In this document: one piece after another, positions 29,690 through 62,093 of the stretch
Layout of the letters: every line of letters starts with the position of its first letter
Numbering within the stretch: the first letter of the stretch is position 1
From: a virus
Reading direction: 5' to 3' (one strand)
IMG/VR virus record: IMGVR_UViG_3300018080_000138
Coordinates: 32,709-96,708 of that record
DNA: 64,000 nucleotides
Program-made: the position numbers and the translations under genes
The notes under the pieces: model-generated
Databases searched by the model: none
Told to the model about the DNA's origin: nothing
What the model saw: only the letters and a program-made list of their open reading frames with translations

Positions 29690-30007
29690 ATGCAAGAAAG
29701 AAGTAAGGAAACCAAAATAGGCAAACGAGTGACAGTTAATTGTATTAAAGCATTAAGTCCTGATACATTAGTTATTGGAAGATTAAATAACTCAATATTT
29801 ATTGGTAGAGTTAGGGTTATAAAGTTAGTTAGGGGTAGAAAAAGAGTAAGAAAGGTAAAATATATTGAGACAATTAGAAGAATTGGTTTTAAAAAAACAA
29901 GATTAAATTTAGTAACTTTTCTTAAGAGTGAAGGTATTGTGTATATGGTGGATGAAGGTGACCAGGAATCGTTGTTGAAAGCATTTTTTAGGGAGACTTA
30001 TGATTAG
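29690..30007 (+). CDS. basic hypothetical protein
   Basis: RBS AAGGAG. Confidence 0.55.
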   Translation: MQERSKETKIGKRVTVNCIKALSPDTLVIGRLNNSIFIGRVRVIKLVRGRKRVRKVKYIETIRRIGFKKTRLNLVTFLKSEGIVYMVDEGDQESLLKAFFRETYD

Positions 30008-30647
30008 TATATTAACCGCAACAATTGGAAGAAATGTATTGCATGATTTGTTTATTTCGTTAGCAAACCAAGTATCACCTAATTGGGAATGGGTAGTAGT
30101 ATTTGATGGTAATTGCTCATATAATAGATATTTTTCTGATTATATTAATTTATATAAAACTTCATCAGGAAAGATAAAGATTAGTATTGAAGAGACACCA
30201 CATAATTTTGGGAGACCACAGAGAAAGGCTGCTGTTAGTATAATGTCGGGTGGTTTTGGAATGTATGTTGACGACGACGATATTTTATACCCCCATGCTA
30301 TTAGTACACTTGAGAAATATATAAAGTATCATGATTTTATAATTTTTCGTACTTGGTGTGATTGGTTAGGTAGATCAATTCCAGCATCTTTGCATCTACC
30401 TAAGATTACTTGTGGAGAGGTTGCATCTTGTAGTTATGCTGTTAGTAATGAGTTATTGAAGGCATTGCCATGGCCACAACAGACTGGTAGGGAGGTTGGT
30501 GGGACTGCCGCAGATTATTATTGGTTTAGAGAGATGAAGAAATTGGCAAAAAGGCCGGTAGTAATACCGGATGTCCTTGCATATGCAAGGCATTATTATG
30601 TAGAAAGAGGGTGTGAACCTTCTTGGGTTTCTCGTTTTGGGCATTAG
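30000..30647 (+). CDS. GT2 glycosyltransferase
   Basis: ISILTAT, EWVVVFDG, YVDDDD DxD, ADY. Confidence 0.85.
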   Translation: MISILTATIGRNVLHDLFISLANQVSPNWEWVVVFDGNCSYNRYFSDYINLYKTSSGKIKISIEETPHNFGRPQRKAAVSIMSGGFGMYVDDDDILYPHAISTLEKYIKYHDFIIFRTWCDWLGRSIPASLHLPKITCGEVASCSYAVSNELLKALPWPQQTGREVGGTAADYYWFREMKKLAKRPVVIPDVLAYARHYYVERGCEPSWVSRFGH

Positions 30648-30689
30648 AGGTAGTTGTTGTATAGGAGATAAATAAATGGAAAGAGATGT

Positions 30690-30956
30690 ATGTTTAAAGA
30701 AATAGTGAGTTTTGTCATAGTTGTGTTAATAGTAGGATTATTACTTGATTGGCTTAGTACGCCTCATTATCTGGCTAATGAAGATGAGATGAAGGTACAT
30801 TATTGTGATTATATTGTAGTTGATAAAAATGCATCTTTTATTGGTGGAAATAAAATAGTAGTGAAGAACGACACCATATACTGTTCGTTTCGGTGTTATG
30901 ATATTTTATACGAAAAGTATTTAGTAGGTGATATAATAGGAGAAGAAAATAGATAA
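30690..30956 (+). CDS. membrane-anchored hypothetical protein
   Basis: N-terminal TM helix. Confidence 0.55.
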   Translation: MFKEIVSFVIVVLIVGLLLDWLSTPHYLANEDEMKVHYCDYIVVDKNASFIGGNKIVVKNDTIYCSFRCYDILYEKYLVGDIIGEENR

Positions 30957-31435
30957 TGTTTCATATAAAACATAAAAATCATGGGAAGAATAAGGATGAA
31001 AAGTATCGTATAATGCGATCGTATTCTTCTTATAAGGAAGCAGTATGGGGTTTATGTGCACATGAACTGAGAGCGTATTTTTCCCTCTCCGGTATAATGG
31101 AAAATGATGAGTTAACAGAGGTGGGTATTTTTGAGAATGATAAATGGGTAGATTGGAGGAATATAGATTTTTCACGTTCATCTTTTGCCTTAGAATGTAT
31201 ATGTTGCGATTCGGTTGACCATCCAAACCATTATAATGAGAACCTGAGTGGAGTAGAATGCATAGAGGTAGTTGAGCGTATGAATTTTAATCTTGGAAAC
31301 GCAGTAAAGTATATTTGGAGGGCTGGGTTAAAAGAAAATATAGAAGAGAATTTAAAAAAAGCAGTGTGGTATATTAAAAGAGAATTAATTAGAATGGAGA
31401 AGTTAAATGCCAGCAAGAGCAGGAAAGAAAAATAG
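30956..31435 (+). CDS. DUF3310 protein with an N-terminal extension
   Basis: VDHPNHY, ECIEV, FNLGNAVKYIWRAGLK, LKKAVWY. Confidence 0.8.
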   Translation: MFHIKHKNHGKNKDEKYRIMRSYSSYKEAVWGLCAHELRAYFSLSGIMENDELTEVGIFENDKWVDWRNIDFSRSSFALECICCDSVDHPNHYNENLSGVECIEVVERMNFNLGNAVKYIWRAGLKENIEENLKKAVWYIKRELIRMEKLNASKSRKEK

Positions 31436-31619
31436 AAAGTGGGGGAGACGGAAAAATAAACCATGCCAACAGCGGTACACGAAGCAATGTCGTTGGATAC
31501 TGAATAAAGCAAAGAGAATTGTAAGGCACTTGAGAAAGCATCCGAATTTTTGGACATATTCTAAGTTACCATCTGCCGCAGTCTTGGAGAAAGTTTCAGA
31601 GCTGCGTAAGAATCGATAA
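31407..31619 (+). CDS. highly basic small protein
   Basis: R/K-rich ORF. Confidence 0.5.
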   Translation: MPARAGKKNRKWGRRKNKPCQQRYTKQCRWILNKAKRIVRHLRKHPNFWTYSKLPSAAVLEKVSELRKNR

Positions 31620-31639
31620 AAATAAAAAGGAGAAAACAA

Positions 31640-32020
31640 ATGGATTATTGGTTAGTATATTTGATTGGACAGGTTGATATTTGGATTGATATTTGCGAGG
31701 TTTTTAGTATTATCTCAGGAATAACTTTGTTGGTCCGTATTTTTATTAATACATATTCTTTTGCCAGTGAAGAGAGAAGAGATGAGGACGAGAGAGAGCT
31801 TTTTGCTTTTAAGACGAGGTGGTTAAAATGGATTTTTTTAATTATGTTTGTTTTTTCTACGACGGTCTCTTCATTGATGCCAAATAAAAAAGTATTAGTT
31901 GCAATGGTCATTGCCTCAAAAGTTGATAGAGAGTCTTTTAATAAGCTTCTTTTATTAAAAGAAGAGGTGAAAAGAGATATAATTGATATTGTAAAAGAAT
32001 TAAATGAGAATGATAAGTAA
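31640..32020 (+). CDS. membrane protein
   Basis: two TM segments; RBS AAGGAG. Confidence 0.6.
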   Translation: MDYWLVYLIGQVDIWIDICEVFSIISGITLLVRIFINTYSFASEERRDEDERELFAFKTRWLKWIFLIMFVFSTTVSSLMPNKKVLVAMVIASKVDRESFNKLLLLKEEVKRDIIDIVKELNENDK

Positions 32021-32355
32021 TGGAAGCAATAACTAAGAAGATCTTAAGACGGTATTCTTTAACATTATGTATGATAGTATTGATAATAAGCCTTATTTTG
32101 GGTATAGTACATAATATCAAAGGATTAAGTGATAGTAATATAACTAAACCACTGACTTTGGATATTGTGTATAATGATGGTGAGACGATAATAACTTTTG
32201 ATGAGAAGGATTCTGGTGTTTTAGTTTATGAAGAATTTAGTTTGATAGGTGGTGGGAATCTATTTTTAAGAGGGGATAGTTTGGTTATAGAGTTTATTTA
32301 TTCCAAGACGAATTCAGATGTAATTTGTATTGAGAATTTAAGGGGTCCGTTGTGA
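32020..32355 (+). CDS. membrane-anchored protein
   Basis: N-terminal TM helix. Confidence 0.55.
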   Translation: MEAITKKILRRYSLTLCMIVLIISLILGIVHNIKGLSDSNITKPLTLDIVYNDGETIITFDEKDSGVLVYEEFSLIGGGNLFLRGDSLVIEFIYSKTNSDVICIENLRGPL

Positions 32356-32759
32356 AAAAGTATATAGGTATTTTATTTTTGATTTTATTATTACCTGGTT
32401 GTTCTTTAATTAGGAAGACAGTTATCATGTCACCATTACAGAAGTCAGTAACGAAGTTGGAGTTTAGGGGTGTCGGCCCATTAACATTTTCTTTGAAGAA
32501 TTGGTCTGATGTTACTGTTAGATGGGTGATGTATTTACCTGGGACATATAGTTGGATTTTGATAAAACCAGCTGAAGGAAAAATAGAGCCTGGTGAAAGT
32601 CAGTTGATATGGGTTAGAGTTGATCCTAAATCCATTAAAGGTGAAGGGATGCATATGGGAGTAATAACATTGCTTTCGGATGTAAATGATGTGATGATAC
32701 CCGTTTTTTACTTTAAAATAAGTAGTGGTGAGTTTGATTGGAAATCGGAGGAGATTTGA
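32352..32759 (+). CDS. putative lipoprotein with a BACON/Ig-like domain
   Basis: lipobox LPGC; W...SWI.I.P..G.I.PGESQ.I.V.VD pattern. Confidence 0.6.
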   Translation: MKKYIGILFLILLLPGCSLIRKTVIMSPLQKSVTKLEFRGVGPLTFSLKNWSDVTVRWVMYLPGTYSWILIKPAEGKIEPGESQLIWVRVDPKSIKGEGMHMGVITLLSDVNDVMIPVFYFKISSGEFDWKSEEI

Positions 32760-32997: not shown

Positions 32998-34059
32998 ATG
33001 CTAAAAATATTATTGCTAAGAGTAGTTTCTGATAATAAAGGTGATGATATGATTGCCGAGGCCATTAAACAGGGATTTAGGCAGTCAATGGTTAAAATAT
33101 CGTTTACAGAAATATCAGTAAAGGAAAAAGTCGGATGTAACGCAGTTAATTATATAAATACATTTGATGCAGTTATCTTAGGGGGTAGTGGATTATTTGT
33201 GAACCATAAGTTTGACTCAGGATTTTATTTTAATTGTAGACCTGAGTTTTTTGATAGAATAAAAATTCCATTATACATTATTGGGGTTGGTAGTAACGAT
33301 AATTTTAAATACTCAAGTTATGGCAAGTTAAAGGAAAGAACAATAGCCAATATTAAAAAACTTATTGGGCGTGCTAAGTTTACATGGGTTAGGGATAATC
33401 AAACAAAAAATTTGTTACTTAGTAATGGAATTAGTGATGTAGTGTATATTCCTTGTCCTGTTCTTGCAATGGGTAGTTTATTTGGTAGTTCAGTAGATAC
33501 TGATAGTCCTATGTCTGTGTCTATATCTTTTGGAAAGCATGGAAAGTATGTAAGTAGTGTGCATGATTATTTGGTGGTGTGTTATGCAAAAATATTAAGA
33601 AGGGTATTAAATGAGTTTGATATTAATATTAATTTTATTGCACATAGAGATATAGATTATGATTCCTATAATGATTTGGTTAATAGAAAAGAATTTAGAG
33701 ATGATAAGGAAAAATTTAAATTTACATTAACTAATTCGCCTTATATAATGAATAAACTTTACTCAGAGAGTATGTGCCATATAGGAGTATATTTACACTC
33801 AAATATTATTGCATTTAGTAATGGATGTCCTGTGAATATACTTGGTTATGATAAGAAGTGTAAAGCATTTTATGAAGATATTGTAAAGGATAATGAGTTA
33901 TGTACATATAATTTGCTTCATAATATTAATATTAGTATGATTTATAGAGCAGTTATCAGTAGTTTACATAGGTGTAGAGGGAGCTTGTATGCTATAAAAG
34001 AACAAGATAAGATTATCCAGACATTATCGGGCATCGCAAGGAAAATTTATTTGTCATAA
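32998..34059 (+). CDS. polysaccharide pyruvyl transferase family protein
   Basis: NKGDDMI, ILGGSG, IGVG, WVRD, YLHSNI, GYDKK. Confidence 0.85.
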   Translation: MLKILLLRVVSDNKGDDMIAEAIKQGFRQSMVKISFTEISVKEKVGCNAVNYINTFDAVILGGSGLFVNHKFDSGFYFNCRPEFFDRIKIPLYIIGVGSNDNFKYSSYGKLKERTIANIKKLIGRAKFTWVRDNQTKNLLLSNGISDVVYIPCPVLAMGSLFGSSVDTDSPMSVSISFGKHGKYVSSVHDYLVVCYAKILRRVLNEFDININFIAHRDIDYDSYNDLVNRKEFRDDKEKFKFTLTNSPYIMNKLYSESMCHIGVYLHSNIIAFSNGCPVNILGYDKKCKAFYEDIVKDNELCTYNLLHNINISMIYRAVISSLHRCRGSLYAIKEQDKIIQTLSGIARKIYLS

Positions 34060-34400: not shown

Positions 34401-34825
34401 TAAATTTAAATAGATTGCACGAAGTTGCTCTTGGAATAAGAAATGAAAGAGGATGTGGAAAAACAACATTTGATATTTCCTGTATCCAGGGCAGTTTTGA
34501 TTTAGATAATACATTAGTAATTGTGCTGGTAAATAAGTATAGTGATGTTTCTGTATATATCTCAAAAATAGTAAGTTATTTTGGTGAGAATGTTGTATAT
34601 CATAAATTTAAAAAAATAGCATATTTGAGATATAATAAAGTGAAAAGACAAATAATATTTAAAGTATTAAATCTTAATGCAGGTGATTTTAATTTGAGTA
34701 GTGTATTAGACGGGTTTAGTAAAAATATTCCAATTGTTGATTTTAGATATATAGAATATCCAAGTTACCAGAAATTAAAGGAGTATACAGATTGCAGAAA
34801 GAATATGAGCTTTCTCAATGGGTAA
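34397..34825 (+). CDS. short P-loop-containing protein
   Basis: RGCGKTT. Confidence 0.45.
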   Translation: MINLNRLHEVALGIRNERGCGKTTFDISCIQGSFDLDNTLVIVLVNKYSDVSVYISKIVSYFGENVVYHKFKKIAYLRYNKVKRQIIFKVLNLNAGDFNLSSVLDGFSKNIPIVDFRYIEYPSYQKLKEYTDCRKNMSFLNG

Positions 34826-35895
34826 GAAGTAATACATGGGCAAAATCAATACCATTTAAGGTAGCATTTAGAATTGGGGGTGGTCTTGGTGACATGCTGC
34901 ATACAGCAGCTACAGGGCATACGTTTACACGGATAAAGAGTTTTAAAGAAATTTTTAAAAGTTGCAAGATTGTTTTGTGGGTAAACTCACATGATGAGAA
35001 AATAGCGACTGATTTATGGTCAACATCACAGTACATTGATGAAGTATTGTGGCGGCAGGAGGAAACTATTTTTAGAGGATACCTTCGTGAGTTTTTTGGT
35101 AAAAATATGTTGTCTGATTGGACAAATCTACCGATATATGACACGAATCCTTGGGAAATGGTGTATAATAATACACGGTTTAAAGAAAGTGGTGGTATAC
35201 CGATATATGAGTTTTTGCGCCAGGTACATCTACCGATAAATTTATTATTGCAAGAAGAGTTTGAACCAAAGTGCATGCCTGAAGATATTGAGTGGGGAAT
35301 AAGGAATATTCCTAATATGACAGTTGGAATAAGTTTTTTTTCAAGCCACAAAACAATAGACATAAAAGTATGGAAAAGTATAATAAAAAAATTATTGGCT
35401 AATGGACTTAATGTAGCTTTCTTTGGTAATGAGTATGAGAGAAGAGTAATAAAAGTGGATAAGAAGAATAGATCATTATCTGCAATTGCCAATAGGGCAT
35501 GGAAGAAGGGTGGATTAGGAATATTTTATAAAGAGTTGATTGAGAGTAACATGACTGGGATAATTGATCTTGTTGGAAAGTCAAATAATATAAGGCAGAC
35601 ACTTGTTGCGATGAAGCAGTGTATAGGACATATTACTGTTAATAGTGGTTTATGCAATGTTCCGTGGTTGTACAGGATACCATCCGTTATGCTTTTTATA
35701 AAGAGCGCAAAGATGACGAATAGTTATGTACATAAAGAAAATGGATATTTTTGGGGTGTTACAAATCCAGATTACGTAAAACCTTATAGTACTCGAATAA
35801 TTATCCCGGAAGCAAATATAACAAAGGATATATCGGATAGTATTGTTACTGATTTAATGCGCAATATATCATTTATCCATGATACGAAAAGATGA
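34792..35895 (+). CDS. GT9-like glycosyltransferase
   Basis: GGLGDML, IDLVGK, ITVNSGL, RIPSVMLF. Confidence 0.75.
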   Translation: MQKEYELSQWVRSNTWAKSIPFKVAFRIGGGLGDMLHTAATGHTFTRIKSFKEIFKSCKIVLWVNSHDEKIATDLWSTSQYIDEVLWRQEETIFRGYLREFFGKNMLSDWTNLPIYDTNPWEMVYNNTRFKESGGIPIYEFLRQVHLPINLLLQEEFEPKCMPEDIEWGIRNIPNMTVGISFFSSHKTIDIKVWKSIIKKLLANGLNVAFFGNEYERRVIKVDKKNRSLSAIANRAWKKGGLGIFYKELIESNMTGIIDLVGKSNNIRQTLVAMKQCIGHITVNSGLCNVPWLYRIPSVMLFIKSAKMTNSYVHKENGYFWGVTNPDYVKPYSTRIIIPEANITKDISDSIVTDLMRNISFIHDTKR

Positions 35896-36143
35896 TAGTT
35901 TATATAACACAGACAATAGATGGAAAGAAAATAACAAGAGACATTGAAGATATGGTAGATGGAAGTTATTGTGGTATAAGGTCTGTAAAGAATTATGGTA
36001 CGATACTTGGTGCTGCAAAACTTATTAGATTTGGTGGTAATTTGGTTGCAAACATTTATACCACTAAAAATGAAGGTATGCGGTATAATTATTATTTATC
36101 AGTAAAAGAAAGGGTATCATTAATTGCAGTCAAAAAAGCTTAA
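35892..36143 (+). CDS. hypothetical protein
   Basis: ORF track. Confidence 0.5.
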   Translation: MIVYITQTIDGKKITRDIEDMVDGSYCGIRSVKNYGTILGAAKLIRFGGNLVANIYTTKNEGMRYNYYLSVKERVSLIAVKKA

Positions 36144-36960
36144 GAGAAGAAGAACGAAATTGGCCGGTTATACATCTATTGGAATAGGTGGTAGTGCACC
36201 TTTATATATTCCCAAGTCATTAGATGAATTAAAAAGGTTTATCGATTTACATAGACATTATAGGTGCATCGGTAGCGGAACAAATATTTTATTGACATTT
36301 GATAAAAGTAATATCCCATTTATTAGTTTAGGAAACTTTAGTGAGATAAAGAAGTATGGTGATATTTTTTGTGTTGGAGCTGGTTGTTTGTTATCCGTTT
36401 TTGCAAAATATACCACATTAATGGGATATACTGGATTGGAGTGGGCTGTTTATGCATATGGAACAGTTGGTGGTGCAATAATTGGAAATGCAGCAATGTA
36501 TCGTAATAATCCAATAAGTAGTAAACTTGCAGTTGTCACCACATTACGAGGTGGATCACAAGATTTTACTATGTATATTAAAGATGAGTTGAAGTTTCGT
36601 TACCGTGAGTGTAGTTTACCATGTAATGATATAATTGTAAACGCAACATTTTGTCTTACTAAAGGTAGTAGTAGTGTAATAGAAAAAAAATTGAGGTTAG
36701 CAAAAAATGTTAGACGGGCACAATTGTTTTGGTGTAAGGGGTATAAAAGGTTTGGTAATTTTTGGAAGGATTATCATATAATAAAAGAAAATATATTAGA
36801 TATACAGGTTTTAGAAACAGACAAGTTACTTATGCCTACAATGTTACCTGGTTGGATATTGAATAAAGGTAGTGCAACTGCCAAGGACATTCTTTTATTT
36901 GCTGATGCTGTTGAGAAAGATATACAGGTTAAGTTAAGAAGAGAAGTAATAGTGTATTGA
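36124..36960 (+). CDS. divergent MurB-like FAD-dependent enolpyruvyl-sugar reductase
   Basis: YTSIGIGGSA, IGSGTNIL, VGAG, GLEW..YGTVGGA..GNA, FRYR, NKGSATAKD, LRREV. Confidence 0.8.
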   Translation: MQSKKLKRRRTKLAGYTSIGIGGSAPLYIPKSLDELKRFIDLHRHYRCIGSGTNILLTFDKSNIPFISLGNFSEIKKYGDIFCVGAGCLLSVFAKYTTLMGYTGLEWAVYAYGTVGGAIIGNAAMYRNNPISSKLAVVTTLRGGSQDFTMYIKDELKFRYRECSLPCNDIIVNATFCLTKGSSSVIEKKLRLAKNVRRAQLFWCKGYKRFGNFWKDYHIIKENILDIQVLETDKLLMPTMLPGWILNKGSATAKDILLFADAVEKDIQVKLRREVIVY

Positions 36961-37913: not shown

Positions 37914-38065
37914 GAAAAATATATAAAGTTTTATTACTACTTAAGTTAGGTTTGTTTATTATGTTATATTATATTATTCATTTTGTATTTAAGTGGTTTA
38001 AAAGATGTTATTATAAAATTTTTACTTTAGTGAGAGGTAGTAATGAAGGTAGTATACATAAATAA
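37910..38065 (+). CDS. 51-aa membrane peptide, below the ORF-track cutoff
   Basis: ATGA overlap with the previous gene; hydrophobic stretch. Confidence 0.4.
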   Translation: MRKIYKVLLLLKLGLFIMLYYIIHFVFKWFKRCYYKIFTLVRGSNEGSIHK

Positions 38066-50576: not shown

Positions 50577-50617
50577 AAGATAGTAGGTGCAATGTAGTAA
50601 TACACACCTACTATCTT
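50577..50617 (+). terminator. strong hairpin after the capsid gene (terminator, attenuator or mRNA stabiliser)
   Basis: 13-bp perfect stem AAGATAGTAGGTG/CACCTACTATCTT; no long U-tract. Confidence 0.6.
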
Positions 50618-50639
50618 AAAATTATAAAGGATAGTTTTT

Positions 50640-52506: not shown

Positions 52507-52516
52507 TAGGTAGACT

Positions 52517-55539: not shown

Positions 55540-55556
55540 TTTAATATGGGTATTAT

Positions 55557-56444
55557 ATGAGAAAATTAACAAACATTGATACTGAGTTTCCAAAAGTTAT
55601 TTTAATAGATAATTTTTCTGGATGTAATTTAAAATGCTCAATATGTGACCATAAAAATATTACCAGGTATAGAAAAGTTGAAAGGATGAAGTTAACCCTG
55701 TTTTCTAAGATAATTAATGAAATTTCGGATATAGATAAAGATACAAGAGTATGGATGATTTATTTTGGTGATCCATTTTTATGTTATGATATGCCTGAAA
55801 GAATAAGGTATGCAAAGAAAGAAGGATTGACCGATGTTGTTTTAAATACTAATGGTGTCGCGTTGACTACATCTAAAGCAATTGATTATATAAATGCTGG
55901 ACTGGATACATTATATGTTGGTATTGATGCATTTTTACCATTAACTTATAAAAAAATACGGGTTGGTGGTGATTATATGTTAGTGGTAAGAAATGTACTT
56001 GAGTATAGAGATTTATTGGAGGAGTATGGAACTGGCACACAAAAACTTTATGTTCAGTTTGTTGAGACATCTCTTAATATTGGTGAGAAGGATAGATTTT
56101 GTGCATTTTGGAAAGAATTTGGTGTTGCTGTAAAGGTAAGACCAATGGTGTCGTGGGGCGGGCTTATAGCAAATGGTATTAAACCTTTAAAGGATAGAGT
56201 ACCATGTGGTTGGGTAATGGATACATTACCAATTCTTTCTGATGGTAGAGTAGCCGCATGTGCTACAGATGTTCATGGACGATTGATACTTGGTAATATA
56301 AAGAATAAAACAATTAGGGAAATATGGAATGGTAGTCATAAATTAGTAAGAAAATTGCATTATAATAAATATTGGGATAAGTTACCAAGATTGTGCAAAA
56401 AATGTACAGATTGGAATAGTTATAGTAGTGAGGTAGTTGAGTGA
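55557..56444 (+). CDS. radical SAM/SPASM protein
   Basis: CNLKCSIC, GDPF, NTNG; C-terminal C...DGRV..C..D...C..C. Confidence 0.9.
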   Translation: MRKLTNIDTEFPKVILIDNFSGCNLKCSICDHKNITRYRKVERMKLTLFSKIINEISDIDKDTRVWMIYFGDPFLCYDMPERIRYAKKEGLTDVVLNTNGVALTTSKAIDYINAGLDTLYVGIDAFLPLTYKKIRVGGDYMLVVRNVLEYRDLLEEYGTGTQKLYVQFVETSLNIGEKDRFCAFWKEFGVAVKVRPMVSWGGLIANGIKPLKDRVPCGWVMDTLPILSDGRVAACATDVHGRLILGNIKNKTIREIWNGSHKLVRKLHYNKYWDKLPRLCKKCTDWNSYSSEVVE

Positions 56445-56524
56445 TACCGCATTAGAACAACTAACAATAAAAAGGTTGAATTCCAAGTAATTTTTGAAAT
56501 TAAGTATATTTTTAGGAGAATTAG

Positions 56525-57244
56525 ATGAGGATAGGGATATTACAGCCTGGGTATTTGCCATGGCTTGGATTTTTTGATCAAATGGATAAAGTCGATTTAT
56601 TTATTCTTTTGGATACTGTCCAGTATACAAAAAATGACTGGAGAAACCGTAATAGAATTAAAACTTTTCAAGGTATGCAGTGGTTAACTGTGCCAATATC
56701 TTTTAAGCTTGGTGATACAATAGCAGAGGCATTAGTTGTTGATTCTAATTGGAGAAGAAAACATTTGAGAGCGTTAGAACTTAATTATGGTAGTGCAAAA
56801 TATTTTGATTGGTTATTTCCGGATTTGAAGATACTTTTACAAGCAAGATGGACATCGTTAAGTAAATTAAATTTTATGTTATTATCATTTTTAAAGAAAA
56901 AATTGAGTATCAGTACGAAATTGGTTTTAATGTCGTATTATATCGATAACAAAGCAAGCATACATACTTATATTACTGATAAAAGTAAAGATATTAAACC
57001 AAATATGAGATTGGTTAATATTTGTAAGGAGTTTGGTGCAACAGAGTTTTTAGAAGGAAAAAGTGGTTGTAATTATATGGATATAAAGTTATTTGAAAAA
57101 AATGGTATACATGTAGAATTTCATGATTTTAAGCATCCGGTATATCCACAGTTACATGGTGAGTTTATACCATATTTATCAATAGTAGATTTATTATTTA
57201 ATTGTGGTGATAAGTCATTATATTATCTAAGAGGAAATAGATGA
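56525..57244 (+). CDS. WbqC-family protein (putative sugar N-aminoacyl/glycyl transferase)
   Basis: QPGYLPWLGFF, QY..NDWRNRNRI, WLTVP, YPQ, LSIVDLLFN. Confidence 0.92.
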   Translation: MRIGILQPGYLPWLGFFDQMDKVDLFILLDTVQYTKNDWRNRNRIKTFQGMQWLTVPISFKLGDTIAEALVVDSNWRRKHLRALELNYGSAKYFDWLFPDLKILLQARWTSLSKLNFMLLSFLKKKLSISTKLVLMSYYIDNKASIHTYITDKSKDIKPNMRLVNICKEFGATEFLEGKSGCNYMDIKLFEKNGIHVEFHDFKHPVYPQLHGEFIPYLSIVDLLFNCGDKSLYYLRGNR

Positions 57245-58230
57245 GAATATTAGTAGCAGGTGGTGCTGGATTTATAGGATCAGATTTTGTTCGATTATTG
57301 TTTAATCAGACAAATCATAATATAGTAATTGTAGATAAATTAACTTATGCGTCAGATTTAAGAAATATCGAAGATATTTTAGCTTCTGAAAGGATACAGT
57401 TTTTTCAAGGTGACATAAGAGACTTTGGTTTTATGTATGATATTATCACTAATGTAGATTATATAATAAATTTTGCCGCAGAAACACATGTTGCAAGATC
57501 AATTTTTACAACATTAAATTTTGCAGAAACGGATTTTATGGGTACTCAAGTTATCTGTGACTGTCTTGTTAGAAATAGACATATTAAGAGGTTTATTCAT
57601 GTATCTACATCAGAAGTATATGGAACGGCATTAACAGAGTATATGCATGAGGATCATCAATTAAATCCAAGATCACCATATGCCGCTGCAAAGGCAGCAG
57701 CGGATAGGTTGGTATATTCGTACATAAAAACATATAATATTCCAGCCTTAATTGTTAGGCCATTTAATAATTATGGAATAAGACAACATCCGGAGAAGCT
57801 TATACCAAGGTTTATAACTAATTCAATTCTTGGAAGAGAGTCATTAATCCATGGCGATGGAAATGCACTAAGAGACTGGGTATCAGTCAGAGATACATCA
57901 TCCGCAATATTATTGTTACTTACTTATGAAGATATTGATGGTGAGGTATTTAATATAGGAACAGGAAGATCATTATCAATAAAATACATTGCTAAAAGAA
58001 TAGAGGGTAAATATAGGTATGTTGAAGATAGACCTGGTCAGGTTAGTCGACATACAGCACATGTGGGTAAATTATGGAAGCTTGGTTGGCAACCATCTTA
58101 TAGTTTTGATGATCATCTAAAAGTTATTTTTGATTGGTATTCTAAAAATAAAGAATGGTGGATAGATAAAATTGAATATGCCAATGTTCCAATAAAAAAT
58201 GGTAATGGGACTGGTTTAATTTATAGGTAG
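57241..58230 (+). CDS. rmlB: dTDP-glucose 4,6-dehydratase (RmlB-like)
   Basis: GGAGFIGS, DKLTYA, AAETHV, STSEVYG, SPYAAAK, NNYG.RQHPEKLIP. Confidence 0.88.
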   Translation: MRILVAGGAGFIGSDFVRLLFNQTNHNIVIVDKLTYASDLRNIEDILASERIQFFQGDIRDFGFMYDIITNVDYIINFAAETHVARSIFTTLNFAETDFMGTQVICDCLVRNRHIKRFIHVSTSEVYGTALTEYMHEDHQLNPRSPYAAAKAAADRLVYSYIKTYNIPALIVRPFNNYGIRQHPEKLIPRFITNSILGRESLIHGDGNALRDWVSVRDTSSAILLLLTYEDIDGEVFNIGTGRSLSIKYIAKRIEGKYRYVEDRPGQVSRHTAHVGKLWKLGWQPSYSFDDHLKVIFDWYSKNKEWWIDKIEYANVPIKNGNGTGLIYR

Positions 58231-58239
58231 GAAAAATTT

Positions 58240-58965
58240 ATGGTATGTAGAATTTGCAGTAGTAATGATACTGTGCTTGAGTTATCAGTTACTAAAAGAA
58301 TAATGGGTCAGACAATTTTTAAGGTGTTTAAGTGTAATAGATGTCGTGGGTGGTTTGTTGGAAATAATATTTCAGAACAGGCATGGAGGACATTTGTTCT
58401 TCAAAATAAAGTTTCTATAGGAACAACAAGGACAGATTCTAATAGCAGAATAAAAAATGTATACCCAGTTTATTTGGCACACATGGAAAAGGTAATTCCA
58501 TTAGAAAGTGTTTCTACTTTATTAGATATTGGATGTTATACAGGTGGTTTTATGGATGTTTTATCAAAAAAATATCCATTAATACTTTTTAAAGGTATTG
58601 AACCAAATAAGCGGTTTTATGACATTGCTTTAGAAAAAAGGTTTGATGTTGATAATAAATTTTTTGATACTTGGAGTTCAACGATTTGCTATGATATAGT
58701 CGTACTTAACCAGGTATTAGAACATGTTTGCTATCCTGCAACTATATTAACTAAAGCAATAGATTATTTATCAGATGATGGGTATATGCTTATTACAATA
58801 CCTAATGTTAGTTCGATTTTGGATTCTATTTCGATTCCACAACACCTTAGTTATTTTAACCAAGAAAGCATTGATGCTTTATGTGATATATGTGGTATTG
58901 ATATTATTTATGATGCCGTGTACTTAAATTCAGGAAGATTACTTGTATGTAAAAAAGGTGTGTGA
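58240..58965 (+). CDS. class I methyltransferase with an N-terminal zinc site
   Basis: CRIC...CNRC, LLDIGCYTG, IEPN, QVLEH. Confidence 0.85.
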   Translation: MVCRICSSNDTVLELSVTKRIMGQTIFKVFKCNRCRGWFVGNNISEQAWRTFVLQNKVSIGTTRTDSNSRIKNVYPVYLAHMEKVIPLESVSTLLDIGCYTGGFMDVLSKKYPLILFKGIEPNKRFYDIALEKRFDVDNKFFDTWSSTICYDIVVLNQVLEHVCYPATILTKAIDYLSDDGYMLITIPNVSSILDSISIPQHLSYFNQESIDALCDICGIDIIYDAVYLNSGRLLVCKKGV

Positions 58966-60110
58966 GATTAATGAATGTAAAATTTCATAGGCATAATTTA
59001 GGTAATTATGAACTTTCAGCAGTAGGCAGTGTTTTTAAGTCTGATTTTTTAACTACGGGTGAGAATGTGAAGGTATTTGAGCGGGAGTTTGCAATGCTTA
59101 CAAAAATGAAGCATTGTGTTGGTCTTAGTTCATGTACTGCTGCATTACACCTTGGTTTAGAGTATGTAAGATATATTATGGGGAATAATAAGTTTGTGGT
59201 TGCAACAACTCCGTTGACATATGTCGCAACCGTGTTGCCGGTAATAGCAACTGGTAGAAGATTATTATTTATTGATGTCGAAGAAAATACAGGATTATTA
59301 TCTACTAATGAATTACTTAAAGTTGCAGATGATGTTGATTTAGTAATTCCAATACATTTATATGGACAGGTATGTGATATGGTTCAGATAGGCGCAATTG
59401 CTGAACACTTTGATTTTTTAATCATGGAAGACAGTGCACATGTAATACATGGTATGGGGCATGGAAATTATCCTGGATATGAGTTTAATAGTATTGGTGC
59501 TGCGTATAGTTTTTATGCAACAAAGGCAATAACATGTGGTGAGGGTGGGGCATTTTGTACAAACAATTTGATGGTTACCGATTTTATTAGAAAGATGGCA
59601 CAACATGGTATTAATAAAACTGCATATGAGAGGTATAATGGTATTGATAGTTGGGATTTAGAGTATATTGGTTGGAAGTATAATATGTCAGATATTCAGG
59701 CAAGTATTTTACTTGCTCAATTAAAAAGAGAATTGGATTTTTGGGATAGAAGAAAATTAAATGAGTTTGCATACAGGAATTCATTGGATGATATTGTTGA
59801 TTTTCCTGAGATAAGTGATTCGCATGCGCATGATTACTTAATGACAACTATGTGGGTTGATCCTGGTAAGAGAGACAAGATAATGGAAGAATTAAGGAAA
59901 TTAGGTATTGGTATTAGTATGCATTACAAACCATTACATCTAATACGTAAGATTGCTGTGTATAAGGATTTGATAAACAGAACTTTGGCATTTCCAAATG
60001 CTGAGTTAATAGGGAGCAGAACAATTTCACTACCAAATTATCCATTATTGACCAAGAAGGAAATCGAGTATGTTATTGACTCAGTAAGAAAGGTAGTAAG
60101 ATCGGTATGA
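58962..60110 (+). CDS. DegT/DnrJ/EryC1/StrS sugar aminotransferase
   Basis: SSCTAALH, IHLYGQ, EDSAH, SFYATKAITCGEGG, SLP.YP. Confidence 0.93.
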   Translation: MRLMNVKFHRHNLGNYELSAVGSVFKSDFLTTGENVKVFEREFAMLTKMKHCVGLSSCTAALHLGLEYVRYIMGNNKFVVATTPLTYVATVLPVIATGRRLLFIDVEENTGLLSTNELLKVADDVDLVIPIHLYGQVCDMVQIGAIAEHFDFLIMEDSAHVIHGMGHGNYPGYEFNSIGAAYSFYATKAITCGEGGAFCTNNLMVTDFIRKMAQHGINKTAYERYNGIDSWDLEYIGWKYNMSDIQASILLAQLKRELDFWDRRKLNEFAYRNSLDDIVDFPEISDSHAHDYLMTTMWVDPGKRDKIMEELRKLGIGISMHYKPLHLIRKIAVYKDLINRTLAFPNAELIGSRTISLPNYPLLTKKEIEYVIDSVRKVVRSV

Positions 60111-61330
60111 TAGAAATAAGAACAAACATTAAAAAAAATGTAATAGAGTATACAATGTCTAAGAAGTTGAGGTATATGAAAAATCAAAGGTTTGTTATTA
60201 GTTATACTTTTGATTTAAAATCATTTCCTTTACATCTTGCGAATTTTATGGTAGGAATTTTATTATCTGAGCATATTAGTTGGACAGGTGAGGATGTGCT
60301 GTTTTCTTCATTAACAAAGAAGGAAGTTAAATGTATCAATAAACATATCTTAAATAATTTTATTGCTAATCCGTATAAAAGAGTAATAAATAAATGTCCT
60401 GAGGTTCATTCTAAAAATATTAGTAAGTCTGAGTTAAACTTTGATGGTGGTCCAGTAATTACAATGAACGGGATGGGAAAGGATGGATTAGCACTTGCAA
60501 GCTTAGTAAGAGAACTTAATATTGAGCTGGTGAGTTGTGTAGTTGCCAATCAGTATAAAAATATGTCCTTATGGAAAGATAGGGCAAGAGCAATGAAAAA
60601 GTTTTATTCATCGAAGGGAATAATTCCGGCCTGGGTTGGAACATCTTATTTTCGAGGAAATAGTTATAAAATAATTCCTTGGCAAGTGTTTGCTTTTCCT
60701 GTTGCTTGGTTTTATAGCTCACGTGATATATTAATTGGATTTAATCTTGGAGACTCAAAGTTTTACTTAGGAAATGGATATTCACCAAGACCTAATGTTA
60801 CTGTGTTTTCATTTGACGCAATATCAAAGGCAACGGGATTTAGGATTGGAAATCCATTTTGGGGAGTAAGTCATTTAGTGATACAAAGATTGATTTTAGA
60901 AAGGTATCCTGAGGTTGCGCAGTTTCAAAGGAGTTGTATGCGTGGAATTCCTTGGTGTGGTAGGTGTGGAAAGTGTCTTGGAATAAATATTCTTGCACGT
61001 GCAGGCGGTAATACTACTAAAAAGTTGAGTCTTAGGAATATGAGAATTCACTGTGATACGTCTCATTGGAGGAGAGCGAATCCTCTTTCTGCTGATGTTT
61101 ATATGGAAGCAGAAAAAAAATTACGTGGTGAAGAATATCAGTTGTGGATAGAAAAATTAAACTTAAATGCACAAAAGTTTGCGTGGCATCCTACTAAGGT
61201 AATGAAGATATTAAAGGAACATGTATCTTGTACTAAAGTTGATCCGGGAAAGAATGGTTTGGGTTATACAAATGTACCATCTATATGGTCGAATATATGT
61301 CTAAAAGATAAATGGAGTATAAATGTCTAA
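60107..61330 (+). CDS. PP-loop (N-type ATP pyrophosphatase) protein, MurL/QueC-like
   Basis: NGMGKDG (SGGKDS-like); RSC...WCGRCGKC. Confidence 0.55.
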   Translation: MIEIRTNIKKNVIEYTMSKKLRYMKNQRFVISYTFDLKSFPLHLANFMVGILLSEHISWTGEDVLFSSLTKKEVKCINKHILNNFIANPYKRVINKCPEVHSKNISKSELNFDGGPVITMNGMGKDGLALASLVRELNIELVSCVVANQYKNMSLWKDRARAMKKFYSSKGIIPAWVGTSYFRGNSYKIIPWQVFAFPVAWFYSSRDILIGFNLGDSKFYLGNGYSPRPNVTVFSFDAISKATGFRIGNPFWGVSHLVIQRLILERYPEVAQFQRSCMRGIPWCGRCGKCLGINILARAGGNTTKKLSLRNMRIHCDTSHWRRANPLSADVYMEAEKKLRGEEYQLWIEKLNLNAQKFAWHPTKVMKILKEHVSCTKVDPGKNGLGYTNVPSIWSNICLKDKWSINV

Positions 61331-62093
61331 AGTTACATTATCAGTTGCATTACCATTGTATGAAAGTAAGGATTCAGCATGGATAGCACTTGAGTCATTA
61401 TGTTATCAACGCAATGGTGGTGGACCATCTTGGGAATTATTGGTGGCTGAAGAAATAACAAACAATATGGTTGGTGCGGAGAACATACTTTCCTATAAAG
61501 ATAGACTTAGATTAGTTGGTTGTGAGCGAATTAGTTATACCCCACTTACTGAGTGGATACCATTGCCAAAGAAATGGAAATTACTTGCTAATAAAACATC
61601 AAGTACATCTGAAGTATTTTGCTTACAGGCAAGTGATTGCTACAGCCAGCCTTGGCGTATTTTTGAAAGTTATAAGCTGATAAAGAAAGGGAATGACTGG
61701 GTACAAAAAGGAAAAGGTATTTTTTATGATTTATTTACTGGTATAGTGGTATTATTTATTAGGGGTAAAAAAACGTATCGTCCAGCATTGGATATGTGTT
61801 TTAGAACTCAATATGCAAGGCAGTTGGAATCAAGTTCGTTGAAATCCAATATTGATGGTTGGTTATTTAGACAGTGTGCCAAATCTAAAAAAGGAAAGTT
61901 AAGAATTGGATGGACGTTATCTAATTCATGGATGTATGGTATTGATACCAATGGATTAAATAGGATATCAAAGAGTAGATTAACACAAATGAGAAAGAAA
62001 AGACCTCCATTTTATAGATGTACTTTAGATTGGAGGAAAAATTTACCTAATAAGGTAGTTGAAAGATTATTAAGTTACAAGGAGAAAAAATGA
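61323..62093 (+). CDS. GT2/GT-A-like glycosyltransferase
   Basis: LSVALPLY, WELLVAEE, ASDCYS..WRI, NIDGW. Confidence 0.6.
   Translation: MSKVTLSVALPLYESKDSAWIALESLCYQRNGGGPSWELLVAEEITNNMVGAENILSYKDRLRLVGCERISYTPLTEWIPLPKKWKLLANKTSSTSEVFCLQASDCYSQPWRIFESYKLIKKGNDWVQKGKGIFYDLFTGIVVLFIRGKKTYRPALDMCFRTQYARQLESSSLKSNIDGWLFRQCAKSKKGKLRIGWTLSNSWMYGIDTNGLNRISKSRLTQMRKKRPPFYRCTLDWRKNLPNKVVERLLSYKEKK

Follow-up and report, generated by a model that had tools for sequence, protein, structure and literature searches.

Introduction

To our knowledge, glycosylation of its own particle by a phage has been demonstrated experimentally only in mycobacteriophages. In Che8, Rita and others, phage glycosyltransferases (GTs) glycosylate the capsid proteins of the phage, forming a shield (Freeman et al. 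2023, Cell Host Microbe 31:1216, as cited in PMC11256854). Mimivirus encodes a 4,6-dehydratase, a 4-aminotransferase, an N-acyltransferase and a predicted methyltransferase that lead to the N-acetyl, 2-O-methyl viosamine of its fibrils, which also bear a second, pyruvylated polysaccharide (PMC9614988). The autotransporter heptosyltransferases TibC and Aah are GT9-related GT-B enzymes that glycosylate protein, not LPS, and have an extra N-terminal domain; TibC has a four-Cys metal finger near the C-terminus (C339, C342, C358 and C370; PMC4358343).

Here we describe a 64-kb window (the whole stretch of DNA analysed) from a marine, uncultured 97-kb phage, for which no cultured relative was found. 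This phage probably sugar-coats its own particle, because many distant relatives likewise encode a GT9 enzyme immediately after the capsid gene, and docking of this enzyme on the capsid protein is predicted. If true, this would be a phage-built sugar coat beyond the mycobacteriophages, with a capsid-docked first enzyme and a rare-sugar pathway around the head genes.

Compared with that of the mycobacteriophages, the proposed system is similar in that soluble phage GTs would act on the phage's own particle in the cytoplasm, with no membrane export parts. It differs in having about 11-14 GTs and a six-enzyme sugar pathway around the head genes, in a GT9-type first enzyme with a predicted capsid-docking domain, in its marine, uncultured phages, and in that no C-terminal tag common to the capsid and tail-tube proteins was found. 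The window shares with Mimivirus the enzyme classes listed above, and has a pyruvyl transferase in addition. That eukaryotic giant virus uses UDP-linked sugars, and its fibril glycans have been characterised chemically. The dehydratase of the pathway predicted here is nearest to enzymes specific for dTDP-glucose, and the window encodes WbqC and a radical-SAM enzyme besides.

Results

Gene layout

The window covers about two thirds of a 96.65-kb contig that is circular or terminally repeated, with ends overlapping by 54 nt and all genes on a single strand. GC content and GC skew were uniform across the glycan blocks, and 0.91 of the sampled words from 49470-53233 were present in runs from two other studies, so an assembly chimera is unlikely. 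QueC-, FolE- and QueE-like 7-deazaguanine genes are also encoded on the contig. Re-analysis bore out the gene list and coordinates of the preliminary description, including a block at 50.6-62.1 kb flanked by the major capsid gene and a fibre gene. This block occupies the capsid-to-connector interval, and the head genes from portal to major capsid protein separate it from a second glycan block upstream. The features are as follows.

11344-12291, + strand: GT9-like GT without an N-terminal docking domain, among early/middle genes (PF01075, 30.9 bits)
12737-14170, + strand: probable GT-B, paralogue of 44015-44986 (28% identity over 332 aa)
30000-30647, + strand: borderline GT2-like GT (PF00535, 23.9 bits vs 23.3 cut-off)
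32998-34059, + strand: CsaB-like polysaccharide pyruvyl transferase (PF04230, E 7e-26)
34792-35895, + strand: divergent third GT9-like protein (clade GT9 profile, E 6.4e-8 among 142 ORFs)
36124-36960, + strand: MurB-like FAD reductase (UDP-N-acetylenolpyruvoylglucosamine reductase family; PF01565)
36957-38969, + strand: two CgeB-like GTs, 36957-37913 and 38043-38969 (PF13524, E 1e-14 and 9e-15)
38956-41409, + strand: GH101/GH129/DUF5696-like glycoside-hydrolase-fold protein, 817 aa, within the CgeB array
41955-43780, + strand: two further CgeB-like GTs, 41955-42875 and 42872-43780 (PF13524; paralogy)
44015-44986, + strand: probable GT-B, GT1/GT4-like (ESM-Atlas clusters; paralogue 12737-14170)
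45160-45816, + strand: class I SAM methyltransferase, immediately 5' of the portal gene (PF13489/PF08241)
45893-50558, + strand: head genes, namely portal (starts 45893), MuF-like head morphogenesis protein (starts 47332), prohead protease (starts 48426) and HK97-type major capsid protein (49470-50558)
50640-51833, + strand: capsid-adjacent GT9, 397 aa (PF01075, 46.7 bits)
51814-53233, + strand: two GT2 GTs, 51814-52506 and 52517-53233 (PF00535, E 4e-19 and 2e-12)
53991-55058, + strand: GT4-like GT-B GT (marginally below the cut-offs of the GT4 N-domain and GT1 C-domain models)
55039-60110, + strand: amino-dideoxy-sugar pathway (GNAT, radical SAM/SPASM, WbqC, dTDP-glucose-4,6-dehydratase-like enzyme, methyltransferase, DegT/PseC-like 4-aminotransferase)
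60107-62093, + strand: two block genes without assigned function, 407 aa with a DUF6395 segment and 256 aa (61323-62093)
62475-64000, continuing across the contig junction, + strand: fibre-like virion protein, 598 aa in full (PHROG)

Glycosyltransferases and sugar-modifying enzymes

Two GT9, three GT2 and the four CgeB-like genes scored above the Pfam cut-off; the other GT calls are weaker. Of 14 GTs proposed in the preliminary description, 11 were supported (three GT9-like, three GT2, four CgeB-like and one GT4-like), two are probable GT-B enzymes, and 61323-62093, proposed as a fourth GT2-like gene, could not be confirmed as one. The third GT9-like protein (34792-35895) had no Pfam match and was found by a profile of the capsid-linked GT9 clade; it also matched the glycosyltransferase model TIGR04372 weakly. 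The four CgeB-like proteins are 33-43% identical in pairwise comparisons. Between the GT-B paralogues, 44015-44986 had no Pfam match, its nearest ESM-Atlas clusters being viral 'GT family 1 domain' proteins (0.99), and 12737-14170, with no Pfam or PHROG match, was assigned through it. The latter and 11344-12291 account for the two GTs placed at 11-14 kb; in an alignment, the C-terminal Cys motif of 11344-12291 is identical in type to that of the capsid-adjacent enzyme.

The modifying enzymes said to accompany the GTs were confirmed by profile matches, and two methyltransferases are present in the glycan blocks. The pyruvyl transferase matched TIGR03609 (CsaB) with E 8e-14 and the MurB-like reductase matched NF010480 (UDP-N-acetylmuramate dehydrogenase) with E 4e-31, each below the cut-off of the model. 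The 817-aa protein had no Pfam or PHROG match, and was assigned by an Atlas structure match (TM 0.65/0.83 over ~580 residues).

The capsid-adjacent GT9 enzyme

The structure model of 50640-51833 consists of a ~50-aa N-terminal beta domain, a low-confidence linker and a GT-B catalytic core (pLDDT 81). Like the LPS heptosyltransferases WaaC and WaaF, the protein is above the Pfam GT9 cut-off and retains the N-lobe Asp motif (GGIGD) and the D-[TS]-G-x-x-H donor-binding motif; across the family alignment G-x-G-D is invariant and D-[TS]-G near-invariant, and a GT4 E-x7-E-type motif is conserved in fusions. Unlike them, it has an extra N-terminal domain, a Cys motif and a head-module location, with no lipid A-core context. 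The best VIA structure matches were to GT9 3tov (Z 27.8), WaaF (Z 27.1), WaaC (Z 23.4) and TibC (Z 22.8).

The extra N-terminal domain, four cysteines near the C-terminus (C347, C350, C358 and C369) and a length of 397 aa (vs ~390-400) recall TibC. However, the N-domain does not align with that of TibC (model residue 83 is the first one matched), the cysteines are spaced differently and the fold match is no better than those to WaaF and WaaC; membership is not claimed. The GT9 core is structurally nearer the LPS heptosyltransferases (Z 27-28) than the protein heptosyltransferase TibC, which counts against self-glycosylation.

A small domain directly after an HK97-type capsid gene is also found in YqbF of the Bacillus subtilis skin/PBSX-like prophage (PDB 2hjq, PF14553). 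Within the first ~85 residues of the GT9, the PDB search gave a weak match (residues 14-84, E 0.18), as did Pfam (residues 23-45, 12.8 bits, genome-wide E 0.013); all the matches were below thresholds, and homology is therefore not established.

Predicted docking on the capsid protein

Complex prediction for the capsid protein and the capsid-adjacent GT9 gave an ipSAE of 0.63 (0.56-0.71 across runs; best control 0.00), with a partner pLDDT of at least 78 and at least 22% of contacts common to the runs. The score expresses the confidence of a model. In calibration, 58 of the 80 solved complexes attained this mark, as did 2 of the 110 mismatched pairs; these counts apply only roughly because our own, shallow alignments were used. 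The confident interface joins GT9 residues 8-48 to capsid residues 181-197, 208, 212, 277-282, 335-338 and 354, and the N-terminal domain is thus predicted to dock on the capsid A-domain region.

In the GT-less relatives L005-L009, stand-alone equivalents of the N-domain of the fusion family (70-135 aa) are encoded 3' of the capsid gene, and L032-L035 have extra copies, which marks this domain as an independent component of the head module; the window GT9's own N-domain did not score significantly with the HMM of the fusion family's N-domain. In the window and in close relatives that carry GTs, the capsid protein has a Ser/Thr-rich insertion (VYSSTPT), taken to sit at the E-loop tip, an A-domain insertion that overlaps the predicted GT9 interface and a C-terminal extension. 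GT-less relatives with 49% capsid identity have none of the three, but no capsid feature that cleanly separates GT-bearing from GT-less relatives was found.

Conservation of the capsid-GT linkage

Co-occurrence with the capsid clade, proposed as a check in the preliminary description, strongly favours a head-linked role of the capsid-adjacent block. Of 19 informative capsid-seeded IMG/VR loci, 10 had a GT9-domain gene in the interval from the capsid gene to the conserved head gene that follows; these span 32-75% capsid identity. In the reciprocal, GT-seeded search, all viral loci with a full-length N-domain-GT9-GT4-GT4 fusion (n = 12/12) had this capsid type upstream, at a distance of zero to two small genes; in these contigs the capsid-linked GT9 is often followed by GT2s, a dehydratase and methyltransferases. 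The genes downstream in L030 and L033 (a GDP-mannose-4,6-dehydratase-type enzyme, GT2s, methyltransferases and an epimerase) form a recipe that resembles the block of the window.

The close relatives L003 and L004 (capsid protein 75% identical), retain GT9-GT2-GT2 at 46-58% identity, with the two GT2 homologues of L004 in the same order (48% and 58%). L003 also has homologues of 44015-44986 (54% identical, upstream of portal) and of the methyltransferase 45160-45816 (48%), but most of the upstream block (30-45 kb) is absent beside its portal region, so that block may serve another target. The capsid-to-connector interval holds two small genes in the GT-less relatives L005-L008 (49% capsid identity) and one in Streptomyces BE-cluster phages (~32%). 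In L015 a LAGLIDADG gene lies directly behind the capsid gene; the site is an insertion hotspot too, which counts against self-glycosylation.

The fibre-like protein

The fibre ORF extends beyond the window; joined over the 54-nt overlap of the contig ends, it encodes a complete repeat protein, with 16 detected repeats of the type N-[IV]-A-[IV]-G...N-T-T-G spaced ~16-17 residues apart. It matches PHROG virion structural/tail spike families (E 1e-44) and is a candidate second acceptor; its N-x-S/T sites are not enriched (13 vs 10.5 +/- 2.8).

Discussion

We give a little better than even chances to self-glycosylation of the phage head, perhaps also of the 598-aa fibre, with the block behind the major capsid gene as the core of the system. 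A phage-built virion glycan had been proposed from the outset, and this reading is partly supported: co-occurrence strongly favours a head-linked function of the capsid-adjacent block, with docking predicted, while the acceptor (capsid, fibre or both) is inferred and neither the upstream block (30-45 kb) nor the two GTs at 11-14 kb are tied to the virion. The 'giant-virus scale' then suggested is fair for the gene content, not for a demonstrated glycan.

Since its N-domain is predicted to dock on the capsid A-domain, the GT9 would be brought to the capsid protein, free or in procapsids, in the cytoplasm of the cell at a late stage of infection, and is proposed to be a capsid-docked priming transferase adding the first sugar on the capsid protein. 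The glycan would then be lengthened by the GT4-like enzyme and both GT2s, possibly together with other GTs, while the downstream pathway would convert a host NDP-hexose to a 4-amino-4,6-dideoxyhexose, N-acylated by WbqC and GNAT and methylated. No sugar nucleotidyltransferase was found in the phage, and the starting donor is therefore most likely dTDP-glucose. The upstream block (pyruvyl transferase, MurB-like reductase, third GT9-like protein, four CgeB-like GTs, GH-like protein, GT-B and methyltransferase) may put pyruvylated or lactyl-type sugars on the same glycan or, alternatively, serve a second acceptor such as the fibre-like protein. Such a coat could serve to alter the surface properties of the particle, to mask it or to mediate adhesion.

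A hydropathy scan of 142 ORFs detected none with more than three hydrophobic segments, the sole ORF with three being the tape-measure protein, in agreement with the reported lack of Wzx/Wzy/GtrAB-type membrane proteins. Neither a flippase, polymerase or ligase-type membrane protein nor a phosphoglycosyl transferase was found in the phage, which upholds the earlier case against O-antigen conversion. A broader remodelling of the host envelope, in which LPS-core, capsule or wall-polymer intermediates on the cytoplasmic face of the infected cell would be the substrates and host flippases and ligases would do the rest (for example to block superinfection or to keep progeny from re-adsorbing to debris), is unlikely. 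Being peripheral and soluble, LPS-type GT9 enzymes would not need membrane proteins encoded by the phage, and their lack is compatible with this reading. The best-known GT9 members are LPS heptosyltransferases, and among solved folds WaaF, WaaC and a Veillonella GT9 are closest to the capsid-adjacent enzyme; a pyruvyl transferase and a MurB-like reductase are what wall or capsule polymers typically involve, two GTs (at 11-14 kb) lie among early/middle genes without a docking domain, and the upstream block is not kept beside the head genes in L003. However, envelope remodelling leaves unexplained both the GT9 fixed behind capsid genes across 32-75% capsid identity and in every GT-seeded locus, and a domain predicted to bind capsid protein. 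The phage would lack the initiating, flipping, polymerising and ligating enzymes, no integrase was found among the subset of ORFs scanned, and a late structural gene string fits poorly with an envelope change, which must act early.

We consider it quite improbable that the GT9, and the large GT fusions of relatives, are a capsid decoration, held on the finished head by the N-domain and acting outside the cell as a carbohydrate-binding adhesin, instead of or besides building a coat. The predicted binding of the N-domain to the A-domain region, its stand-alone occurrence at the decoration-gene position in GT-less relatives and its fusion to GT domains of up to 1,200 aa would suit such a role, but the family conserves motifs that match those for catalysis and donor binding in GT9, and the block further encodes several more GTs and a complete pathway for sugar modification, which is only sensible if sugars are transferred.

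DNA hypermodification, already held less likely in the preliminary description, has very little probability. The 7-deazaguanine genes suggest another DNA modification by the phage, and we know of no glycosylated 7-deazaguanine. Sugars are placed on DNA in T-even phages. In recently described phage clusters, which can occur close to structural genes, 5hmC is glycosylated by GTs akin to LPS enzymes, and heptose is one of the sugars used (bioRxiv 10.1101/2023.12.21.572611). However, the complete contig has no thymidylate-synthase/dCMP-hydroxymethylase homologue or TET/JBP dioxygenase, so no hydroxylated pyrimidine acceptor would be made, about a dozen GTs plus pyruvylation go far beyond the mono- to trisaccharides reported on DNA, and the docking prediction indicates the capsid protein.

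Glycan genes surrounding the head genes

The layout claimed in the preliminary description was recovered, with the head genes lying between two blocks of glycan genes, one at 30-45 kb before the portal gene (upstream block) and one at 50.6-62.1 kb, between the major capsid gene and a fibre gene (downstream block). Two further glycosyltransferase (GT) genes are located at 11-14 kb.

Glycan and head genes of the window (position, strand, assignment)
11344-12291, +, GT9 (PF01075, 29-31 bits, above cut-off)
12737 and 44015, +, probable GT-B paralogues (no family match; ESM Atlas neighbours are viral 'GT family 1 domain' clusters)
30000 (borderline), 51814 and 52517, +, GT2 genes above the Pfam cut-off
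32998, +, CsaB-like pyruvyl transferase
34792-35895, +, divergent third GT9-like gene (capsid-linked clade profile only, E 6e-8)
36124, +, MurB-like reductase
36957, 38043, 41955 and 42872, +, four CgeB-like paralogues (PF13524 above cut-off)
38956-41409, +, 817-aa protein with a predicted GH101/GH129/DUF5696-like fold
45160 and 58240, +, two class I methyltransferases
45893, +, portal
47332, +, MuF-like
48426, +, protease
49470, +, capsid
50640-51833, +, GT9 (PF01075, 46.7 bits against a cut-off of 22)
53991, +, GT4-like (N- and C-domain models, both just under their cut-offs)
55039, +, GNAT
55557-56444, +, radical SAM/SPASM (best NCBIfam match 'spiro-SPASM', far under cut-off)
56525, +, WbqC (E 9e-72)
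57241, +, dehydratase nearest dTDP-glucose 4,6-dehydratase (TIGR01181, E 7e-91, below the equivalog cut-off)
58962, +, DegT/PseC-like aminotransferase (PF01041, E 5e-76)
60107-61330, +, 407-aa protein (DUF6395 segment common with the QueC-like protein; no PDB sequence match)

Fourteen GT-like genes had been counted from the sequence, of which 11 were supported by our searches and two (12737 and 44015) are probable. The three GT9 genes and the four CgeB-like genes were found as described, although 34792 was reached through the clade profile and had no PDB sequence match. The two GT-B genes are paralogues, and the GT4-like gene matched both of its domain models just under their cut-offs. Three of the four proposed GT2-like genes were retrieved. 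The other one, 61323-62093, had no match in Pfam, PHROG, NCBIfam or PDB, a probability below 1% against phage GT2s in hhalign, and an unusable structure model (pLDDT 40); it was left out of the GT count.

The modifying enzymes reported alongside the GTs were all identified (pyruvyl transferase, reductase, methyltransferases, GNAT, WbqC, dehydratase and aminotransferase). A 4,6-dehydratase, a PLP 4-aminotransferase, an N-acyl transferase and a methyltransferase are encoded together, as in the NDP-4-amino-4,6-dideoxyhexose (viosamine/perosamine-type) pathway, and we infer a product sugar of that type. The radical SAM/SPASM protein could carry out a sugar change (C-methylation or epimerisation) or a peptide modification. 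The 817-aa protein is encoded mid-array among the four CgeB-like genes. Its predicted GH101/GH129-like fold is one that we take to be of the endo-alpha-N-acetylgalactosaminidase type, cleaving O-glycans from proteins, and its candidate roles are glycan trimming, transglycosylation or depolymerase activity.

Four small ORFs at 30690-32759 (88, 126, 111 and 135 aa), which separate the first GT2 gene from the gene for the pyruvyl transferase, carry N-terminal hydrophobic segments, one having a weak Ig-like match and a DUF3310 protein being among the group; they are possibly lysis or membrane-anchored proteins. Past the downstream block, the order is a 126-aa ORF, a fibre-like repeat protein (598 aa once the contig was closed), three small ORFs, a conserved 216-aa head-completion gene and the tail genes. 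The region of the fibre-like gene (62001-64000) has a GC content of 0.385, clearly above the value of about 0.31 elsewhere in the genome; this suggests that the gene, of receptor type, was exchanged more recently. Scans for promoters and terminators did not exceed the shuffled expectation, and co-transcription of the capsid and GT9 genes would follow only from their 81-nt gap and shared strand.

Conservation of the capsid-GT9 linkage in relatives

Capsid homologues were used to build a profile (A1), with which 21 IMG/VR loci were obtained, 19 of them informative. A GT9 gene was present in the interval between the capsid and head-completion genes in 10 of these 19 loci. In L003 and L004 (75% capsid identity), a GT9, two GT2 genes and a 79-aa ORF follow the capsid gene in the same order as in the window, with 46-58% identity, and L003 also keeps a GT-B gene of the 44015 type and a methyltransferase gene before the portal. 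No GT was found in L005-L008 (49% capsid identity), where the capsid gene is followed by two small genes and the head-completion gene. A GT9-domain gene occupies the interval again at 32-41% capsid identity (L011, L012, L014, L017, L018, L019 and L021), fused in several distant relatives to one or two GT4 domains (911-1,195 aa), and a divergent GT9 copy was detected there in L016. The post-capsid interval of Streptomyces phage Elmer was negative for a GT9 gene.

A profile searched against 1.8 billion representatives yielded more than 1,100 members at E < 1e-30, many of which are 1,140-1,236 aa long and consist of an N-domain followed by GT9, GT4 and GT4 domains. When IMG/VR was scanned with the fusion, an A1-type capsid gene was found zero to two small genes upstream in all the full-length loci (n = 12/12), which represent about seven distinct lineages, as two contigs were already in the capsid-seeded set and some were near-duplicates. 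The co-occurrence of GT9 with this capsid clade, which the preliminary description had proposed as a check, was apparent from both directions. Downstream of the fusion, L030 and L033 encode a GDP-mannose-4,6-dehydratase-type enzyme, GT2s, methyltransferases and an epimerase, a gene order indicating that the downstream block of the window is an enlarged version of a clade-wide module composed of the capsid gene, GT9, GT2s and sugar tailoring genes.

In L015 (11084-12310), and also in L013, L022 and L023, the gene directly after that of the capsid encodes a 408-aa protein in which a LAGLIDADG homing-endonuclease domain is combined with Cys-rich segments, indicating that this site is also targeted by mobile elements. 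A repeated pattern consisting of a ~340-aa gene, a ~130-aa gene, a ~766-aa GT4-containing protein and several ~300-340-aa genes was observed in the viral contigs L037-L042 (e.g. L037:2938-6722) and may represent another head-linked GT module, unrelated to the first; its ~340-aa protein did not match the A1 profile.

The capsid-adjacent GT9 enzyme

In the model of the enzyme encoded at 50640-51833 (pLDDT 81), a linker of low confidence separates a small beta-plus-helix domain (residues 1-50) from the GT-B core. Fold comparison (VIA) placed the enzyme nearest to 3tov (Z = 27.8, rmsd 2.6, 287 aligned), followed by WaaF 1psw (27.1), WaaC (23.4) and TibC (22.8), the next unrelated GT-B folds having Z values of 13 or less, and Foldseek matched it to GT9 structures at E 4e-16. 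In our GT9 alignment (A2), G105, G107 and D108 of the N-lobe G-G-I-G-D motif are invariant, and D305 of the C-lobe D-T-G-x-x-H motif (D-[ST]-G-x-x-H in the family) is nearly so; the GT9 motif of the enzyme aligns to those of 3tov and WaaF. The N-lobe Asp is presumably catalytic, as assigned from knowledge of WaaC. The PF01075 score, the GT-B fold of the model, and the Asp and donor-binding motifs all point to a GT9 family member, with ADP-heptose as a candidate donor.

A Cys motif, C-x2-C-x7-C-x10-C (C347, C350, C358 and C369), is conserved in the clade and in the fusions, in a segment modelled with low confidence. It is reminiscent of the iron finger that C339, C342, C358 and C370 form in the protein heptosyltransferase TibC (PMC4358343), but the spacing differs. 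The N-terminal beta domain of the window enzyme is a candidate counterpart of the beta-barrel domain that packs on the catalytic core in BAHT enzymes (TibC/Aah), but the structural alignment of the enzyme with TibC starts only at model residue 83, and TibC was absent from its phmmer PDB matches. Since the fold does not resemble TibC more closely than it does the LPS heptosyltransferases, membership in the BAHT family is not claimed.

Predicted docking of the enzyme on the capsid protein

Complex prediction for the capsid protein and the GT9 enzyme gave an ipSAE of 0.63 (three runs, 0.56-0.71), compared with 0.00 in all three controls, with a partner pLDDT of at least 78 and at least 22% of contacts common to the runs. 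Of 80 solved complexes used for calibration, 58 attained the docking mark, as did 2 of 110 mismatched pairs, figures that are rough since our own alignments were used. The confident predicted contacts would pair GT9 residues 8-16 in a strand-like manner with capsid residues 189-195, further contacts being predicted at capsid residues 181-186, 208-212, 277-282, 335-338 and 354. Residues 181-186 are in or beside an insertion limited to the capsid proteins of the window and of its GT-bearing close kin; these proteins further carry a C-terminal extension and a separate Ser/Thr-rich insertion (VYSSTPT) at what we take to be the tip of the E-loop. These predictions support, rather than demonstrate, binding of the GT9 N-domain to the capsid protein.

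The N-domain of the fusion family also exists as stand-alone proteins of 70-135 aa, encoded between the capsid and head-completion genes of GT-less relatives.

Stand-alone N-domain ORFs in GT-less relatives (locus and position)
L005:3946-4158
L006:2333-2587
L007:9600-9854
L008:6476-6730
L009:10973-11380

The L009 protein has a low-complexity linker preceding the domain, and extra copies of the domain were found in L032-L035. The fusion-family N-domain HMM gave no significant match to the N-domain of the window enzyme, though pattern and position align. The likeness of the latter to YqbF was sub-threshold (E 0.18 in PDB, 12.8 bits in Pfam) and is not established. Regarding possible acceptors, the C-termini of the capsid protein and of the major tail protein homologue (genome 2924-3469) have no tag in common, the Ser+Thr content of the capsid proteins did not separate GT-bearing from GT-less relatives, and N-x-S/T sites in the fibre were not above shuffles.

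Absent components and alternative acceptors

The earlier statement that the enzymes look soluble, with no Wzx/Wzy/GtrAB-type membrane proteins, was borne out by the complete contig. The hydropathy scan detected no polytopic membrane proteins (three hydrophobic segments were reached by the tape measure alone) and none of the GtrA/B/C, Wzx, Wzy or WaaL-type membrane components of O-antigen conversion or export; an initiating phosphoglycosyl transferase (Bac_transf, PF02397) and an NTP_transferase-type sugar nucleotidyltransferase were likewise absent. The enzymes must therefore begin from host nucleotide sugars. Among the ORFs that were scanned, none was recognised as a phage gene of a heptose pathway.

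Remodelling of the host envelope is a possible alternative, GT9 enzymes acting on LPS cores being likewise soluble, and it fits best where the upstream block and the pair of GTs at 11-14 kb are concerned, the latter having no docking domain; it leaves the capsid linkage and the docking domain unexplained. It is also possible that the GT proteins are shown on the capsid in a lectin-like role, although this agrees poorly with their conserved catalytic-type motifs and with the co-encoded sugar pathway. Placement of the sugars on DNA (T-even type, or 5hmC/5hmU-glycan clusters), known for LPS-like phage GTs (bioRxiv 10.1101/2023.12.21.572611) and already held to be less likely in the preliminary description, lacks its prerequisite here, as neither PF00303 (thymidylate synthase) nor PF12851 (TET/JBP) matched the complete contig at E <= 1.

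Proposed mechanism and comparison with known systems

Virion glycosylation is textbook knowledge for eukaryotic viruses, and to our knowledge has been demonstrated among phages in a few actinobacteriophages only. In the mechanism considered most likely for this phage, the N-domain would, late in infection, bring the GT9 enzyme to the capsid protein or to procapsids, where the first sugar would be added, and the GT2 and GT4 enzymes would lengthen the glycan. The host NDP-4-keto-6-deoxyhexose route would be diverted to an N-acylated, methylated 4-amino-4,6-dideoxyhexose, while the upstream block would add pyruvate ketals or lactyl-type sugars, or serve a second acceptor such as the fibre.

A broader joint reading, which we offer tentatively and regard as rather unlikely to hold in full, is that, among uncultured tailed phages of marine and sediment habitats, a broad clade counts a GT9-type (heptosyltransferase-like) protein glycosyltransferase among its core head genes. 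Recruitment of this enzyme by the capsid protein it glycosylates would go through a small beta domain, which is a free-standing head protein in GT-less relatives, and the enzyme itself or, in relatives, the three-GT fusions of 1,200 aa may stay on the finished head as an enzymatic decoration. Here a self-contained factory of ~25 genes would produce a pyruvylated, methylated, N-acyl-amino-dideoxyhexose coat, with a chemistry convergent with those of Mimivirus fibrils and Bacillus spore surfaces. If true, self-glycosylation would be an ancient, clade-wide head function of environmental phages, performed by enzymes whose family is known from LPS cores, with a dedicated capsid-binding module delivering the enzyme to its substrate, and hundreds to thousands of metagenomic phage 'LPS genes' would be possible virion-coat rather than host-conversion genes. 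It would also offer a new view of phage surfaces in adsorption, grazing, aggregation, marine particle sinking and immune recognition, and a compact, portable tag-and-enzyme pair for the glycoengineering of protein cages.

Among known systems, the glycosylation of mycobacteriophage virions comes closest (Freeman et al. 2023, via PMC11256854); in it, as in this phage, soluble GTs are phage-encoded, tied to virion genes and unaccompanied by export machinery, and a glycan bound covalently to capsid or tail proteins would be expected here as well. In contrast, the system described here comprises a GT9-type enzyme together with CgeB-like, GT2 and GT4 enzymes, a dedicated predicted capsid-binding module, and ~11-14 GTs with some ten tailoring enzymes; instead of a tag common to the capsid and tail-tube C-termini, there is a Ser/Thr loop and a C-terminal extension on the capsid protein, and habitat and host range differ. 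The chemistry of the glycan predicted here parallels that of Mimivirus fibrils, on which N-acetyl, 2-O-methyl viosamine occurs alongside a pyruvylated polysaccharide (PMC9614988). No paper linking GT9 enzymes to phage capsids was found in the literature. What sets the present case apart is the linkage of GT9 to the capsid gene, together with the predicted docking domain and the system's size.

Genome and surroundings

The window spans bases 32709-96708 of one viral contig of 96,708 nt. An overlap of 54 nt between the contig ends indicates a complete circular or terminally repeated genome of ~96.65 kb. Its GC content is 28-34%, with a strong positive GC skew all along, and every ORF of at least 80 aa left after overlap pruning is on the + strand. 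The first 15 kb of the window are devoted to replication and repair (RecA, split SbcC/SbcD, beta clamp, clamp loader, ClpP and RNA ligase), followed by small early-type ORFs and then by the glycan/head region. The remaining genome contains DnaB, primase, PolA, the QueC-, FolE- and QueE-like 7-deazaguanine genes, and a tail module that includes the major tail protein homologue, a 796-aa tape measure and a 1,414-aa protein.

The nearest deposited phages belong to the Streptomyces BE cluster, with portal and capsid identities of only 30-33%. Among 50,697 deposited phage records, neither the region nor the GT9 enzyme nor the GT fusion had a relative, whether near-identical or at the protein level, except for one weak match (uncultured megaphage). 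The segment 49470-53233 was recovered with nearly all its words in metagenome runs from sediment and seawater, produced by two other studies, its independent occurrence being judged by word shares; no RNA dataset was listed among those containing it. Scans of genome contigs gave no host clue: the sole match of the capsid profile was a 27%-identical element in a Bryobacterales MAG, and the fusion profile retrieved generic GT4-motif matches only. The search for tRNAs in the window was negative.

No terminase large subunit was detected in the complete contig with PF03237 or PF03354, and the presumed terminases of relatives (517-564 aa, directly upstream of the portals) have no homologue in this genome; 38956-41409 and 44015-44986 were ruled out as candidates. 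The usual place of the terminase, upstream of the portal, is occupied by glycan genes.

The QueE-like radical SAM, QueC-like and GTP cyclohydrolase I genes adjoin a 267-aa gene (L002:8421-11415, a locus from the same genome; genome ~26.4-29.4 kb), and the phage DNA probably carries 7-deazaguanine. A 132-aa ORF in the replication region (genome 25363-25761, L002:7363-7761) is 38% identical over 50 residues to capsid residues 51-100 (E 3e-6) and may be a copied fragment of the capsid N-arm/E-loop.
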